Made by a program: the position numbers and the translations under genes. The notes below the pieces were generated by a model that saw only the letters and a list, made by a program, of their open reading frames with translations, was not told where the DNA came from and did no database searches. From a bacterium (lineage in GTDB: Bacteria > UBA8248), in the NCBI GenBank assembly GCA_965221165.1, contig CBDCRP010000003.1, forward strand, positions 352,001 to 416,000: a stretch of DNA of 64,000 nt. Reading direction: 5' to 3'. Shown here piece after piece: positions 2,420-49,768 of this stretch. How positions within the stretch are numbered: position 1 is the first letter of the stretch; each line of letters begins with the position of its first letter.

Positions 2420-5400
2420 ATGGCGAAGTTCCTCAAAAAGGCATTCAACATCCAGCAGGAAGAACTGCTCGTTTTCTCCGTGTTCTTCCTGTTCTACTTC
2501 CTGATCGGGATCCAGTTCTCCATCGGCCTCACCGTATCCGAAGCATTGTTCCTCTCCGAAGTCGGCCCCGGTTTTCTCCCCTACATGTATATATTCAACG
2601 CGCTGGTGATTATTTTCATCAGCACTTTCTACTCCTCCCTGACCGAGAAGCTATCCATTCCGGCGATGTTCAAGGTCGTTTTGATTTTTTTCATCGCGCT
2701 CGTCTTCGGCATCAAGCTGCTCATCTTCGCCGATTTCCGCGCCTACGCCATGCCCATCGCATTCCCGCTTCTCCACACGCTGTTCGTGATGTTCACGAAC
2801 ATGCTGCCGAACAATTTCCGCGCCCTGTACGGGCAGTATCTCGACGTCCTGCAGTCTAAGCGGCTGGTTCCGATTATTCTGACGGGAGGCCGCTACGGCG
2901 GCATACTGGGCGGCCTGGCCATTCCGGTGCTCATTCCCGTCCTGGGGAGCGTCTCGAATCTGCTCTACGTGTGGATTGGAGCCATCATCATCAGCATCGG
3001 GGTGGTGCAATACGCCGAATGGCGGCTGCGCGACCACCTCATCGAGGATGCGCGTCCCAAAAAGCGCAAGACGACGAAGACGGCGTCGAGAGAAGGCAAT
3101 CTCGCACTCGTCAGGACGAACAGATACGTGTGCGCATTCGCCCTGTTCAGCTTCATCGTGGTGATTCTCAGAAGTTTTCAGGATTTTCAGTACAGCCTCG
3201 TCTTTCGTGAAGTCTTTGCCGATCGCGCGCAACTCGCCTCGTTTCTCGGGTATTTCACCGCCATCGGAAGCGCTTTTTCCCTTATCGTTCAAACGTTCAT
3301 CACCCCGCGCATCATCAAGCGGCTCGGCTTGGGCACGGCGAACCTCCTATACCCGCTGACCACCATCGTCGGCCTCATCGGCATGGCGATTTCGCCCGGC
3401 TTCTATTCCGCCGTTTTCCTGCGGTTCAACAACAAAAACCTCCAGGAATCCATCAGAAACGCCATCAACGCCCTGCTCTACAACGCCGTTTCCCCGTCGA
3501 TCCGCGCGCGGGTGGGCGCGTTCGTCGCAGGCCAGGTGGTCGCCGTGGCCAGCATCGTCAGCGGCGTCGCCCTGCTCATCATCAAGCCGACCGGCCTCGC
3601 TCTTTTCCCGCTCAGCCCCGGCTGGGTGGCTCTCATCTCTCTTTTCATCGCGTTCGCCTACCTGGCCACCGGCTTCTTCGTGCGCCATGAATACGGCGCC
3701 GCCCTGCGCAGGATGCTCGAAGAGAGAAATCTCGGGTTGTTCCGCTACGCCCAGGAGGGGTTCGGGCCGATTGACGATGAGAGCATGGCGATACTCGGAA
3801 GGAACATACGCGAGGGGGATGACGATCTGTGCGTCTTCACCGCCCAGATTATGGCCGATAGCGGCAGAAGGGAAACTTTCCAGATTATTCTCGAAGAAAT
3901 TCCCCGGCGGAAAGGATATGCGGCGGCCGAATTGCTGAAAATTCTCGCCAAGGTTCCCGGGGCCGAAGAAGGCGAGAAAATACGGGCTTTGCTGGAAGAA
4001 TATCTCACCTCAGAGGAGCCCGCCATTCAATGCGCCGCGATGGATGCGGCGGAAACTCTCGGGCTGAACGACGAGACGGCGGATTTGGTTCATGAGAATC
4101 TCGAGAGCCGCTCCCCGGAAGTCAGAGCACGCGCCGTTCAACTGCTGGTGCGCTCCGACGATCTGTTCTGGCTCGCCAACGGCCTGCAGACACTGCACCT
4201 GATGCTCAACGAAGAAGACCCGGCGGCCAGGGTTTGCGCCTTGCGATGTATGGGAGAACTCCAGAATCCGCGCTTCATCAAGCGGTTGATTCCCTATCTC
4301 TATCAGGAGGAGGAGAAAGTCCGCGAAGCCGCATTGGGGGCGATAGAATCATTGGCCATGAACCAGGAGGTCGATGAGGAGAAGATGGAGGAAGTCATCC
4401 GCGTGGCCACCTCGGACAAGAGCGCGGCGATCAGGCGCAGAGGGGTCCGGCAATTAGGCAACAATGGCGCGCGGGAGAATTTCGAGCTCACCCTCGCCGC
4501 CCTCTCTGACGTCGATTCGCTGGTGCGAGGAGAGGCCGTCGCCTCCCTGAAAAACATGAAACGCAAAGGAACCCTCTCTCTCGAAGGCTCCGCTCTGGTT
4601 TCATTCGTCGTCCCGTTTTTGTTCAAAAACGCAAAAAACGGCTCCCGGGAGATGAGCGCGCAGGAAATCGTCGATTCCCTCTCCGCATTCGCCGTGGAAC
4701 ACCTGAGGGAAGTGTACGACGTCATCAATCACCTCCACGTCATAGAGAGCCGGGAAAACGCATCCGCTTTCACGATGTTGAGAAAAGCGCTCGAAGACGT
4801 CGTCGAGGAAAGGCAGCTCGTCCTGCTGGAACTGCTGGGCGTGATTGGGGATGAGAAAACGGTGGACACCGTGGCGGAATCCCTCGCCCGGGGAGGTTCT
4901 TCCTCGAGAGCGATCGCCATCGAGACGCTCTCGAATTTCTCCTCGGCCGGCAATACGAGACTCTTGATTCTGGCTCTCGAGCCTTTGCTTCTCGGGAGTT
5001 CGACCGCCGATAAAGTTTCCGAAGGCAGGAAACTCTGGGAAATCCCCGAACAATCGATTGACGACGTGCTGAGGACATACGTGAATTCCGGGAACACGTG
5101 GCTCCGGGCCATCGCCATCGATGCGGCGGCGAAACACATCGAAAGCGAAGCCGGTGGCCCAACCGCCGAATGGTGCGCGCAATGCCGGGAGCGAGCGGCT
5201 GATGAGGACCCGTTCATCCGAGAGGCGGCGGTTGCCGCCTTGAGGATTATCGGGAAAGATGAAGACGGGGTTGAGGCGTTTTTGAGAACCATGGAGAATG
5301 ACGAGAGTCAACTGGTGCGCATTCAGGTGCGCCGCGAGCACACCCGTTATGGAGCACTTGGCGAAAATCTGTCCGGACAGGAGAAATTCATGCTCTCGAC

Positions 5401-46310: not shown

Positions 46311-47348
46311 ATGAATGATGCACCTAAAATCGGCATGGCCTTCATCGGGCTCGGCTGGTGGGGCGCCGTGCTTGCGGACGCCGCCCTCGCCTCCGGGAAA
46401 GTGGAAGTAACCGGCGGATTCGCCCGCACTCCCTCCTCCCGAGAAGAATTTGTCGGCAAATACGGCGGCAGGAACTTCGCCTCCATCGACGAGGTGATGG
46501 CCGACTCCGAGACAGAAGCCGTCGTCATCGCCACGGCGAACTCCGTCCACAAGGAAATCGCCATAGCCGCCGCGCGCGCGGGCAAGCACGTTCATCTGGA
46601 AAAACCCATGGCGCTGAGCGTCTCCGATGCGAAAGCCGTCGATCAGGCGTGCAGGGACTTTGGGGTGAAACTCCACATGGGGCAGAACTTCAGGCGCTGG
46701 CCGATGTTCCGCAAGGCGAAAGAAATCGTGGAGAGCGGAAATCTGGGGCTGGTGAACTACACGGTCGCCACGTTCTCGAACAACCACGGCTTCACCGCCG
46801 GTCCCGAGAGCATGCGGTGGGACGCCACGGAGAACCCGGGAGGACCGCTTTACAGCTACACCATCCATCTCGCGGACATGATGGAATACCTCTTCGGCGA
46901 CGTGGACGAGGTGAGCGGCTCATGCGCCAAGGTGGGCGGCCCCAACCCCCAGGAAGACGCCGCCGCCGCCATTTTGCGCTTCAAAAGCGGACTGATGGGC
47001 ACAATCTCGGGCAGCTACCTGGCCCCGTTCCACTTCGCATTCGACGTTCAGGGCACCGAAGCGAACCTGAGCCTCTCCACGACGGAAAACCCGACCCTCA
47101 AGCGGCCCATCGACCTGATGGGCGGTCTGGAAACCAAAATCGTAGAACTCGACCACGACCTCGTGGAGGGAAGACTCCTGGCCAACCGCGAGCAATTCGA
47201 CGACCTTGTCGGCGCGATTCGAGAGGACAGGGACCCCGAAGTCACCGGGCGTCACGGAGTTCGGGCGCTCGCCATCATGCGGGCGATCCTGAAGAGCAAC
47301 GCGGAGAGGCGGATTGTGACGATCGAGGAGATTCTCGAGAGCGACTAG
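46311..47348 (+). CDS. Gfo/Idh/MocA-family oxidoreductase
   Basis: IGLGWWG, IATANSVH, GKHVHLEKPMA, GGPL....IH..D. Confidence 0.9.
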   Translation: MNDAPKIGMAFIGLGWWGAVLADAALASGKVEVTGGFARTPSSREEFVGKYGGRNFASIDEVMADSETEAVVIATANSVHKEIAIAAARAGKHVHLEKPMALSVSDAKAVDQACRDFGVKLHMGQNFRRWPMFRKAKEIVESGNLGLVNYTVATFSNNHGFTAGPESMRWDATENPGGPLYSYTIHLADMMEYLFGDVDEVSGSCAKVGGPNPQEDAAAAILRFKSGLMGTISGSYLAPFHFAFDVQGTEANLSLSTTENPTLKRPIDLMGGLETKIVELDHDLVEGRLLANREQFDDLVGAIREDRDPEVTGRHGVRALAIMRAILKSNAERRIVTIEEILESD

Positions 47349-47463: not shown

Positions 47464-48282
47464 ATGGGCAGGCGACGCGACACGCCGGATTTCACGCGCT
47501 CCAACAAATTCCCGGCACTCGAATACCAACCCGCAGCGGAAGAGCGCGAATTCACCAGAAAACTCATCGCATCCACGAGCGCGAACGAGCGCGAAGCGCT
47601 GGGCCAGAAACTGCTCGACAACATTTGCGGCAGCCTCAAAATCCCCCGCGCGCGCCTGCGCGTGTACGAAGAGCGGCAACCCCACAAGCTGCGCGGCGGA
47701 AAACTCGCCTATAAGCTGTACGGCGTCTATTATTGCGAAAACGCGATGATCGAAATCGCCAACCTGACGTCTATTCGCAAACAGGTCGTCGCAGGCAAGA
47801 CGTTTATGGATACCCTCATTCACGAACTCATGCACCACATCGACAGAAAATTTCTCCGAATACCCTCCACCCCACATAGCCCCGGCTTTTACGCGCGCAT
47901 CGAGGACATCAAAACCAAACTCATGCACATGAAGGGCGGGGAGTTGCCATCCCCGCAAGAAGCCGCCTGGGAGAGACCCAAAAACCTGACGGCGGCTCTC
48001 GAGACGGCGGTCTCAGGCGCACGAGCGAGAAACGAACGTCAAAACCCCCAAAAGCCGCACGAGGAGACTCCCGGCGACATTCCGCCGAAGAAGAGAAAGC
48101 CTAGGTGGACCCCGCCGGGTGAATCCGTATCCCCCGCACATGCACTGCCCGAAGAAGCCGGCGCAACAAACCCACCGAAAAAACCGCCACGCACCCGGGG
48201 AGGAGAGTCCACTTTTCCGAATCATCCCCAAAAAGACGTTTCGGTGGAGAAGGAGCCGCAACTGTCGTTCGACTTCCAGTAG
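47464..48282 (+). CDS. SprT/WLM-like HExxH zinc metalloprotease with disordered tail
   Basis: LYGVY, DTLIHELMHH...PHSPGFY (third His ligand). Pro/Lys-rich tail ends QLSFDFQ. Confidence 0.7.
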   Translation: MGRRRDTPDFTRSNKFPALEYQPAAEEREFTRKLIASTSANEREALGQKLLDNICGSLKIPRARLRVYEERQPHKLRGGKLAYKLYGVYYCENAMIEIANLTSIRKQVVAGKTFMDTLIHELMHHIDRKFLRIPSTPHSPGFYARIEDIKTKLMHMKGGELPSPQEAAWERPKNLTAALETAVSGARARNERQNPQKPHEETPGDIPPKKRKPRWTPPGESVSPAHALPEEAGATNPPKKPPRTRGGESTFPNHPQKDVSVEKEPQLSFDFQ

Positions 48283-48473
48283 GTATAATTTACTTTAGGC
48301 AAAAATAATAAATAACTGAAATATAAATTGAAATAAATTCCAAAAATGCGCCTGTCAAAACGCTCTTTCGCTACCCGGCCCAGGCGGTTGTGTTTCACTC
48401 TGCGATTGGGTAAACAAGGTCAGTGCATACGCCATCATACAATCAAGCGCATATCGCAGAGGAGTATTTTCAT

Positions 48474-49166
48474 ATGAGGCCGGCTAACGATTCAGTCCCG
48501 AAACCCTGGGGACCGCTGGCGGGTTTTTGGTCCTGGCAGTACCTGAATCTGTGGAAGACCATCAAACTCGTCACGAGCAAACGGGTCAAAAGTTTTTACG
48601 ATAAATTTCCGAACGTTCATCCCCCCGGCACCGCCTTCCCCGACTTCGAACTCAAGGATATTCACGGGAACGTCTACCGCATGGCGGATTATCTGGGCAA
48701 GAAATACGTGGTGATGACCACGGGCGCCATCACGTGACCGCCATACAGGCGGCAGGTGCCGTTTTACGAAGAGTTGCAGGAGAAATATGCGGATCGCGAC
48801 GTGGTCGTCTTCAATCTCTACGTGAGAGAACCGCACGCGGGCGAGCGCGGATTCCCGGAGATCAGAAACCATGAATCCTACGAACACAAGCGGAGCTACG
48901 CCCAAATGCTGGCCGAGGTCAAGAACATGGAAACCAATATCCTGGTCGACGAGATGGACCAGAAGGTTCACGCCAAGCTCGGAGATCTGCCGAACACCAT
49001 CTGGCTCGTCGGCAAGGACGGGAAAGTGGCCTATAAGTGCACCTGGTCGAACGCGGAGCACGTGGATGAATACCTGGCCAAACTGGTGAACGAGGACCCC
49101 GCATTCGAGGGGATGCCCAAAATGGAGCAAACCATCTTCACTGCCGGCGCCGGCACCGCGATCTAG
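48474..49166 (+). CDS. Iodothyronine-deiodinase-like thioredoxin-fold selenoprotein (230 aa, Sec88 at TGA 48735-48737)
   Basis: ORFs 48423..48737 and 48756..49166 share a frame and are separated by a single TGA. Read-through gives TGAIT-U-PPY (deiodinase GSCT-U-PPF), YVREPH, and VDEMDQ...G.LPN. AGAGGAG RBS before ATG 48474. Confidence 0.85.
48738..48764 (+). promoter_or_regulatory. Bacterial SECIS-like hairpin
   Basis: Stem AGGCGGC / GCCGTTT (48747-48764) with apical loop AGGT beginning 16 nt after the TGA. Confidence 0.7.
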
Positions 49167-49183
49167 CGAGACCAGTCGCCCAG

Positions 49184-49212
49184 AAACGCCCCTGTTTTCG
49201 AGGGGCGTTTTT
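49184..49212 (+). terminator. Terminator-like hairpin after the selenoprotein gene
   Basis: AAACGCCCCT-GTTTTCG-AGGGGCGTTTTT. Confidence 0.7.
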
Positions 49213-49243
49213 CGTCTCCATCACAAAGGAGGAAAACCCGGTC

Positions 49244-49768
49244 ATGGACGCGCCGACAATCATAGGAGAGCGCCTGGAAGCCTACGGGATGAGGCTTAGA
49301 GAAGTCATGGAAGACGTCACCGATGCGGACTTGATGATTCAGCCGGGTTCGAACGACAACCCTATGGGCTGGCTCGTCTGGCACATGACGCGCTTTGAGG
49401 ACAGGACTTTCTCTTGCATCGCTAAAACCCCGGAACTTTGGATAGAAGAAAAATGGCACGATCGCTTCGGCATGGAGCCCGATCCCGAATGCGACGGCGT
49501 GGGCTTCACCCTAGATCAGGTCCTTGAGCTTAAAACCAACAAGGACGCCCTGATGGGCTATTTCGAAGCAGTGCGCGGGAATACGCTCCCCTGCCTCTCG
49601 GGATTAAGCGCGGCGGACCTGGACCGGGAAGAAATCGATTTTATCAGCGGCAAGCCCATCAAGATCGGCCTGCTGGTGGGAAGATATCTGGGCGATCACA
49701 TCTCCCACATCGGACAAATCTGCTATCTGAGGGGCCACATCGCAGGCTGGGGGCGATACCCCGTATAG
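49244..49768 (+). CDS. DinB/YfiT-family protein (putative thiol S-transferase)
   Basis: NPMGWLVWHM and DHISHIGQI give the metal-binding His triad. AGGAGG RBS. Confidence 0.85.
   Translation: MDAPTIIGERLEAYGMRLREVMEDVTDADLMIQPGSNDNPMGWLVWHMTRFEDRTFSCIAKTPELWIEEKWHDRFGMEPDPECDGVGFTLDQVLELKTNKDALMGYFEAVRGNTLPCLSGLSAADLDREEIDFISGKPIKIGLLVGRYLGDHISHIGQICYLRGHIAGWGRYPV

Follow-up and report, generated by a model that had tools for sequence, protein, structure and literature searches.

Deiodinase-like proteins have been known in bacteria since 2005, when Zhang, Fomenko and Gladyshev described selenocysteine (Sec)- and Cys-containing forms in their Sargasso Sea study, assigned to Pfam family PF00837, associated with a bacterial selenocysteine insertion sequence (SECIS) and of unknown function (PMC1088965, in excerpt). 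A 2026 review, which counts more than 110 selenoprotein families in prokaryotes, includes the deiodinase-like family under PF00837 with the motif UxxC and describes functions as largely unknown (PMC13188914, in excerpt). Here we describe a gene of this kind at positions 48474-49166 of a 64,000 nucleotide stretch of bacterial DNA (hereafter the window: positions 352,001 to 416,000 of contig CBDCRP010000003.1, assembly GCA_965221165.1, lineage UBA8248). We put at about 85% the probability that this is one intact selenoprotein gene of the bacterial deiodinase-like type, with an in-frame UGA decoded as Sec, a figure that covers gene identity and recoding and excludes the substrate.

The window gene shares with the selenoproteins described in 2005 a thioredoxin fold, the PF00837 assignment, a UGA-encoded catalytic Sec, the existence of Cys homologues and a SECIS directly downstream with G in a small loop. 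What it adds are modest details of a subfamily. In place of the UxxC given in the table of the review (PMC13188914, in excerpt), the clade has U-P-P-[Y/F]-R-R with no Cys at position +3: the three residues after U are [PA]-P-[YF] at all 47 related loci that we collected, and P-P-Y in the window. The proteins are all of the Sec type and soluble, with no signal peptide or membrane helix, carry a Trp-rich N-terminal extension, lack a resolving Cys and are near-universal and multi-copy in one phylum. The clade may already be listed among the families catalogued in 2005 and 2026.

A search of full-text literature, covering main texts, yielded no paper that deals with what a deiodinase-like protein does in bacteria. 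A second search, for Nitrospin together with selenoprotein, returned only BSepDB, in whose main text (as excerpted) the word deiodinase is absent; an organism named as in the record of one of our loci (L039) stands there among the ten bacteria richest in selenoprotein genes (54). The finding leaves the understanding of Sec recoding unchanged, and it is chiefly of use for mending gene annotation and as a bacterial system in which deiodinase chemistry is tractable.

The reading frame and its UGA codon

With TGA read as U, the frame opens at the ATG at 48474 and closes at the TAG at 49164-49166, and its single internal stop is a TGA at codon 88, within the motif GAIT-U-PPYRRQ. The features of the gene are as follows.

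48474-49166, + strand: complete coding sequence (CDS) of the deiodinase-like selenoprotein, 230 codons plus TAG, Sec at codon 88; drawn from conservation, the Pfam match, the profile match to Dio3 and an AlphaFold (AF2) model
48735-48737, + strand: in-frame TGA read as selenocysteine (U88); drawn from conservation, Cys in distant homologues and DNA contigs
48459-48464, + strand: Shine-Dalgarno-like GAGGAG, 9 nt 5' of the ATG; read from the sequence

The first-pass annotation of the stretch had placed this single TGA at the catalytic position of a deiodinase motif, and both the translation and the Cys column of homologues (see below) confirm that placement. The translation also bears out the 142 residues that it saw after the TGA, including YVREPH (116-121) and VDEMD (158-162), its Trp-rich N-terminus (four Trp in residues 1-27) and its observation that there is no Cys proximal to the Sec and one other Cys only. 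That residue, C189 in YKCTW, is the sole Cys of the protein and is not conserved, being A, S or N in relatives. Read with translation table 11, the frame splits into open reading frames (ORFs) of 104 and 136 aa, and the prediction that standard gene callers would split or shorten the gene proved accurate: all 81 database homologues of 126-403 aa are C-terminal fragments of 127-137 aa, and N-terminal fragments terminating at residue 87 are called as separate proteins. All public calls examined interrupt the gene at its Sec codon, as is also true of the 109 copies from 48 of the phylum's genomes, so that the proteomes of these organisms miss a near-universal multi-copy enzyme.

Taken at face value, the public calls would make the TGA a true stop, leaving either a pair of short genes, of 87 aa and 136 aa, or the pseudogene of a former Cys-type gene, and TGA is indeed the commonest stop in this genome. 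We regard this as very improbable. A scan of one genome per species yielded 47 related loci, in which amino acid conservation starts exactly at the ATG at 48474 and spans residues 1-230; all 47 show TGA at one and the same alignment position, between G[AS]xT and [PA]P[YF][RK]R. The loci come from at least seven phyla, with record titles naming Nitrospinota/Nitrospinaceae, Tectomicrobia, Acidimicrobiia, Verrucomicrobiota, Binatia, Acidobacteria, Planctomycetota and Anaerolineales. Within the phylum of the window, the gene is found in 48 of 51 genomes (29/29 of those of high quality) at 1-4 copies per genome, mostly 2-3, and exactly one TGA is present in 109 of 112 matches (a total summed from the per-genome column); the other three are fragments (residues 1-87, 116-229 and 115-230), none of which spans residue 88. 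A nonsense mutation would not have persisted at a single alignment position in all 47 loci and in 109 matches, in different phyla and in paralogues. Moreover, the two halves together make up one predicted thioredoxin fold (predicted local distance difference test, pLDDT, 93.4) and align as a single domain to Dio3, the site is the catalytic Cys/Sec column, the codons of the downstream hairpin have frozen synonymous sites and the genome encodes the full Sec machinery.

The exchange of Sec for Cys is seen among more distant relatives. In 30 full-length proteins of approximately 30-40% identity, the Sec column holds Cys in 27, Ser in two and Gly in one, with no case of Trp; the first-pass annotation had expected Cys or TGA at this column, and this is what the 47 loci and nine-tenths of the distant relatives have. 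Every member found in the clade itself carries Sec (the 47 loci and those phylum matches that reach the site). A maximum-likelihood tree built from 22 Sec and 23 Cys forms divides them by type with a single change (support 88/85), although the 45 rows were hand-picked by us and the tree thus shows clustering rather than history.

All four components of the Sec machinery that the first-pass annotation had proposed as a check are present in the genome, which is estimated to be 96% complete with 8.5% contamination. SelA is found at 507.1 bits, and selB adjoins it: some 2.7 kb downstream, a SelB wing domain is matched at 73.9 bits. The selC gene for tRNA-Sec (75.9 bits; called by ARAGORN as SeC, anticodon tca) lies on a contig other than that of the window, and a tRNA scan of the window itself finds no tRNA gene. 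SelD (329.8 bits; L012, G000:C2:975065-976027, - strand) contains one in-frame TGA, and its product, selenophosphate synthetase, is probably a selenoprotein itself, judging from its sequence. At one distant locus (L047:4727-6649, - strand), selB is located directly downstream of the deiodinase-like gene and encodes GTP_EFTU, SelB wing 2 and 3 and SelB beta-barrel domains.

Could the TGA instead be an assembly or sequencing error for TGC or TGT, or reflect a genome-wide reassignment of TGA to, for example, Trp or Gly? Nothing specific favours either, beyond the contamination estimate and a frameshift at one locus (L044), and both are effectively refuted. Logan contigs of the DNA runs X1 and X2, which derive from one sample, possibly the source sample, span 48702-48832 with zero differences across the TGA, which deals with the sequencing error that the first-pass annotation had raised, and the same TGA recurs in the independent assemblies of the 47 loci. 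TGA is the commonest stop codon of the genome, terminating 1209 of 2742 long ORFs, and there is thus no genome-wide reassignment; nor do the homologues favour one, being Cys apart from the Gly and the two Ser.

The genome also encodes two more deiodinase-like paralogues, 43% and 41% identical to the window protein, with TGA at the same position.

L065:5186-5791 (G000:C3:1430186-1430791), + strand: deiodinase-like paralogue, TGA at the same column, hairpin with AGGU(G) loop
L066:4904-5506 (G000:C2:321404-322006), - strand: deiodinase-like paralogue, TGA at the same column, hairpin with AGGU(G) loop

Some variation in gene structure is apparent elsewhere. Two related genomes (L043:3211-3849; L044 around 3462) have a divergent tandem second copy, again with TGA at the Sec column, approximately 800 nt upstream of the orthologue. 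The L044 orthologue (4001-4689) is one base short upstream of its TGA, which puts the N-terminal part out of frame and is either assembly noise or the mark of a pseudogene. Planctomycetota-labelled members (L062:1656-2948 and L064:3638-5002) have much longer frames of about 430-454 codons, with N-terminal stretches that by eye resemble EF-hand loops (D-x-N-K-D-G-x-L-x-x-D-E).

The hairpin downstream of the UGA

Two mutually overlapping hairpins can be drawn immediately 3' to the TGA.

48747-48764, + strand: SECIS hairpin, with 5' arm 48747-48753, AGGU loop 48754-48757 and 3' arm 48758-48764; drawn from folding, covariation and frozen codons
48738-48752, + strand: alternative hairpin CCGCC/GGCGG (positions 4-8 with 14-18, counting the T of TGA as 1); the minimum-energy fold of the isolated RNA

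The first of these was described in the first-pass annotation as a 7-bp stem with an AGGU loop 16 nt downstream of the UGA. The distance holds for the loop, the stem itself starting 9 nt after the TGA, and the element as such gains support from covariation and from frozen synonymous sites. The loop presumably resembles that of the E. coli fdhF SECIS, to which it was likened, and bSECISearch applies finer rules to the distance between UGA and hairpin. In the numbering used above, positions 13-19 pair with 24-30 around A-G-G-U. Two of the seven pairs are G-U, and the folding energy is -8.7 kcal/mol (z -2.72), which three of 200 shuffles equal or better. The conserved core comprises 6 bp, 48748-48753 with 48758-48763. 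In its essentials a bacterial SECIS is a stem-loop that is stable, lies directly downstream of the UGA and has a G in its small apical loop (PMC1088965, in excerpt). A permissive Rfam scan of 48300-49300 returned no SECIS family; its single match, to nrdJ RNA on the minus strand where the terminator hairpin lies, falls below threshold (20.4 bits, 40.3 being required) and is uninformative either way.

The cleanest evidence for the SECIS comes from a synonymous-site test on 42 distinct CDSs (the window and L018-L059, minus the frameshifted L044). Across 172 gap-free degenerate columns with a median third-position entropy of 1.15 bits, values of 0.3 bits or less occur only at codon 88 and at codons 92-96, and the latter coincide exactly with the stem and loop. 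That these codons are frozen points to a constraint at the RNA level, where a bacterial SECIS is expected.

Pairing was counted over 45 aligned sequences (the window, L018-L059 and the two tandem copies), which reduce to 40 distinct rows. L060-L064, which are absent from the synonymous-site test as well, were left out of the counts because their hairpin is in another register: in these members, from Planctomycetota, Binatia and Acidobacteria, the stem is shifted and the loop is GGUC. The six inner pairs are formed in 38-40 of the 40 rows. Pair 18-25 is G-C in 28 rows, G-U in 10 and A-U in two, and pair 15-28 is G-U in 24, G-C in 12, A-U in one and C-G in one. The covariation score of 0.237, compared with 0.197 in shuffles, is reached by none of 500 shuffles. 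Both paralogues keep the hairpin at the same place with a loop of AGGU or AGGUG, and show the compensatory change of G15-U28 to C-G. Across the aligned sequences, the loop can be summarised as AG[G/U]U on a stem of 6-7 bp that starts 9 nt after the UGA.

Several observations tell against this element. Its outermost pair, 13-30, is unpaired in 24 of the 40 rows. When the partners are slid by -3, 84.3% of cells still pair, although the covariation score there is only 0.074, and the percentage paired taken alone is therefore weak evidence. Shuffled sequences fold just as well as the 66 nt that follow the TGA (z 0.11), and the minimum-energy fold of the free RNA is the competing hairpin, in a structure that includes the UGA. 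We considered this competing hairpin as a functional element in its own right and rejected it: no covariation is seen in it, and 11 of the 40 distinct sequences have lost pair 6-16. It is probably non-functional.

The two folds can be reconciled if decoding is considered. A ribosome positioned at UGA88 would cover the first ~9 nt downstream, and with them the 5' arm of the competing hairpin, so that the latter could not form, and the 6-7 bp AGGU hairpin would then form at the entrance of the mRNA channel. From here it would recruit SelB-GTP-Sec-tRNA(Sec), as in the E. coli model of SelB binding to the SECIS, leading to insertion of Sec.

The deiodinase family and the predicted chemistry

The first-pass annotation had called the product deiodinase-like. 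In Pfam searches with the single sequence, T4_deiodinase (PF00837) matches residues 27-189 at 39.3 bits (cut-off 27), and 42 of 45 family members match PF00837 at E <= 1e-5. A profile built from the 45 members and compared with the PDB finds Dio3 first (4tr3, E 5e-24 over about 150 residues), followed by Dio2 (9h48, E 1e-18) and then ResA (3e-14), whose sequence match covers only the N-terminal half of the domain (residues ~45-117). This profile comparison clearly favours the deiodinases as the best-matching solved family, and the earlier name stands. A match to the NCBIfam model NF038285 (deiodinase_rel), in contrast, reaches 72.7 bits against a cut-off of 250 and covers only positions 180-324 of 347; this 'deiodinase family protein' is a different, longer subfamily.

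The active site of Dio3 has been described as a conserved anchor and proton network that includes Tyr197, Glu200 and His202 (PMC7506546, in excerpt). In the profile alignment to 4tr3, T87-U88-P89-P90-Y91 of the window protein correspond to Thr169-Sec170-Pro171-Pro172-Phe173, and Y116, E119, H121 and H133 to Tyr197, Glu200, His202 and His219. The window protein therefore has in common with the catalytic domains of the mammalian iodothyronine deiodinases Dio3 (4TR3/4TR4) and Dio2 (9H48) the T-U-P-P-[F/Y] motif, the Y-x-x-E-x-H motif, a counterpart of His219 in His133 and the L-V-x-D strand. Y116, E119 and D159 are invariant, and T87, H121 and W191 are each retained in 29 of the 30 distant relatives.

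Differences from the animal enzymes are equally plain. Cys239 of Dio3 has no counterpart in the window protein, which hence has no internal resolving thiol, and Trp207 of Dio3 aligns with Gly126, with Phe127 beside it. Animal deiodinases have an N-terminal transmembrane anchor, whereas we detect neither membrane anchor nor signal peptide in the window protein, the maximum mean Kyte-Doolittle hydropathy over 19 residues being 0.41 within the first 52 residues; its conserved N-terminal extension of ~45 residues is Trp-rich and helical. The SECIS of the window gene is of the bacterial in-frame type, that of the animal deiodinases being located in the 3' UTR (untranslated region). Small and soluble, with the deiodinase anchor kept and no internal resolving Cys, the window protein could serve as a convenient bacterial model for the Sec-deiodinase chemistry that preceded thyroid hormones.

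The AF2 model (predicted template modelling score 0.91, pLDDT as above) shows a thioredoxin fold that follows three short helices at residues 14-47. The C-terminal tail (residues 208-230; 49095-49163) ends in a conserved ...T-x-I, and Ile230 does not vary among 22 aligned sequences; the model gives this tail no secondary structure, though at high confidence. When the model is compared with solved structures by VIA-align, Dio2 comes first (Z 17.5, 161 residues aligned) and Dio3 next (Z 17.2, 165 aligned).

A number of results weigh against a deiodinase reading of this protein or of its activity. In the single-sequence Pfam search, AhpC-TSA (PF00578; 46.9 bits, cut-off 26) and Redoxin (PF08534; 41.3 bits) outscore T4_deiodinase. 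The thioredoxin-fold chains that follow in the VIA-align ranking lie within 1 Z of the deiodinases, and Foldseek puts ResA first (E 2.5e-10), with deiodinases at ranks 25 and 28; as fold searches do not separate deiodinases from ResA and peroxiredoxins, the fold alone is not decisive. His133 is retained in just 15 of the 30 distant relatives. Ser167 and Cys168 of the Dio3 motif SCTU are replaced by Ala85 and Ile86, and the omega-loop is about five residues shorter than in Dio3. The gene neighbourhood, described in the following section, gives no clear clue to a substrate. Finally, Zhang et al. argued that the function of the bacterial homologues probably differs from thyroid hormone deiodination (PMC1088965, in excerpt). 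Of these points, the loss of SCTU is tempered by Dio2, which also lacks the proximal Cys (it has SATU; PMC7506546, in excerpt), and the SCTU feature does not therefore define the whole deiodinase family.

ResA/TlpA and Bcp/AhpE proteins share the thioredoxin-fold subclass with the window protein, which matches AhpC-TSA and Redoxin above threshold, but sequence matches to the ResA and peroxiredoxin groups are confined to the N-terminal half of the domain. The CxxC (or UxxC) pair of ResA/TlpA is absent, position +3 being Tyr or Phe, and unlike ResA and the peroxiredoxins the window protein has the deiodinase-type insertion E-x-H...H-x-S-x-E-x-K. The peroxiredoxin active site has Pro at -7 and Thr or Ser at -3 from the peroxidatic residue. 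At the corresponding positions relative to U88, the window protein has Met81 and Ala85, and the pattern is thus not matched.

What reaction might such a protein catalyse? The gene product would be a deiodinase-family selenoenzyme of ~26 kDa, soluble and with a thioredoxin fold, with Sec88 at the N-terminus of helix alpha-1 in the T-U-P-P-Y motif, backed by Thr87, Tyr116, Glu119, His121 and His133. Most likely, the selenolate would attack an electrophilic atom of a small substrate to give Se-X or Se-OH. As there is no conserved second Cys, this intermediate would have to be resolved by an external thiol or thioredoxin. The first-pass annotation had proposed a Sec-dependent reductive dehalogenase or peroxidase recycled by an external thiol, which seems a reasonable candidate function. 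Because the invariant residues are specific to deiodinases and neither the peroxiredoxin nor the CxxC pattern is matched, we rank reductive, deiodinase-type removal of halogen from an aromatic compound first among candidate reactions, if only tentatively and well short of an even chance, with a hydroperoxide as the second candidate substrate and something else making up the remainder. The substrate would not be expected to be a thyroid hormone.

The hydroperoxide candidate keeps the same gene and the same recoding, and would make the product a thiol- or thioredoxin-dependent peroxidase or general redox protein (a one-Sec enzyme akin to peroxiredoxins or glutathione peroxidases, acting via a selenenic acid) rather than a dehalogenase. 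Besides the slightly higher Pfam scores for AhpC-TSA and Redoxin, many peroxiredoxin, Bcp and AhpE structures align to the model at Z 14-16, and genes for luciferase-like flavin monooxygenases are found beside the window gene and near one paralogue. The review regards most thioredoxin-fold prokaryotic selenoproteins as probable redox or antioxidant proteins (PMC13188914, in excerpt), and a redox function was also the proposal of Zhang et al. 2005 (PMC1088965, in excerpt). Set against this are Met81 and Ala85 in place of the peroxiredoxin Pro/Thr pattern, the highly conserved and deiodinase-specific anchor formed by Tyr116, Glu119 and His121, and the profile search, in which Dio3 and Dio2 beat every peroxiredoxin and ResA by a stated margin of at least 10 orders of magnitude. 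We consider a peroxidase a real but minority prospect, somewhat behind aromatic dehalogenation.

A more far-reaching version of the dehalogenase reading is more speculative still, and we think it unlikely as a whole. Here the clade would consist of true Sec-dependent reductive dehalogenases, representing the ancestral chemistry behind the animal thyroid hormone deiodinases, with the paralogues acting on different natural organohalogens (bromo- or iodo-phenolics) and being recycled by thioredoxin or a small thiol. Such enzymes would be exclusively of the Sec type and cytosolic, with T-U-P-P-[Y/F]-R-R and without a resolving Cys, present at two to three copies in nearly every genome of a very selenoprotein-rich phylum, with spread to Acidimicrobiia and others.

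Gene neighbourhood and expression

Downstream, the gene is followed by a strong hairpin.

49182-49212, + strand: intrinsic-terminator-like hairpin, 12 bp with a 7-nt loop and then a U tract, starting 16 nt after the stop codon

This hairpin was found by folding (-19.7 kcal/mol, z -3.76, with none of 200 shuffles as good); a scan of 48250-49300 with promoter and terminator consensus patterns returned no promoter-like site and no plus-strand terminator. As for transcripts, the RNA-library run X14 contains a 446-nt contig that spans 48635-49080 at ~93% identity, although such a contig does not show transcription, and a contig of X20 ends at 48699, short of the TGA.

Near the selenoprotein gene are genes for a DinB_2 protein, for a luciferase-like monooxygenase (divergently oriented) and for a DEAD helicase, with a GFO/IDH/MocA oxidoreductase gene upstream. 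The first three are syntenic in 19, 24 and 25 of the 47 loci, respectively, and in Nitrospinota-like loci only. A GFO/IDH/MocA oxidoreductase gene occurs no more than 4 kb away from the deiodinase-like gene at 29 of the 47 loci, nine of them distant, and is the only neighbour to recur outside the Nitrospinota-like group. These distant copies are just 30-39% identical to that of the window, and the window's genome gives 17 tblastn matches to this family, which makes both orthology and linkage doubtful. The window copy (46329-47348, + strand) has an N-terminal GLGWWG motif, and in nine loci that are labelled Acidimicrobiia or Verrucomicrobiota or are unlabelled (for example L050:2856-3872, - strand) the oxidoreductase gene is adjacent and divergent. 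The paralogue on C3 lies some 1 kb upstream of genes that encode a luciferase-like monooxygenase and a flavin reductase.

Immediately upstream of the selenoprotein gene, a 272-aa ORF (47464-48282, + strand) has no Pfam match and is conserved in 24 of the 47 loci, each of them Nitrospinota-like. By eye, its H-E-L-M-H-H stretch resembles the metalloprotease motif HExxH. Seven consecutive genes between 45470 and 52574, encoding the enoyl-CoA hydratase, the GFO/IDH/MocA oxidoreductase, the 272-aa ORF product, the selenoprotein, the DinB_2 protein, the luciferase-like monooxygenase and the DEAD helicase, all end in TAG. Across the genome only 30% of long ORFs have this stop codon, and within the window 14 of 47 do; the run of seven is probably due to chance.

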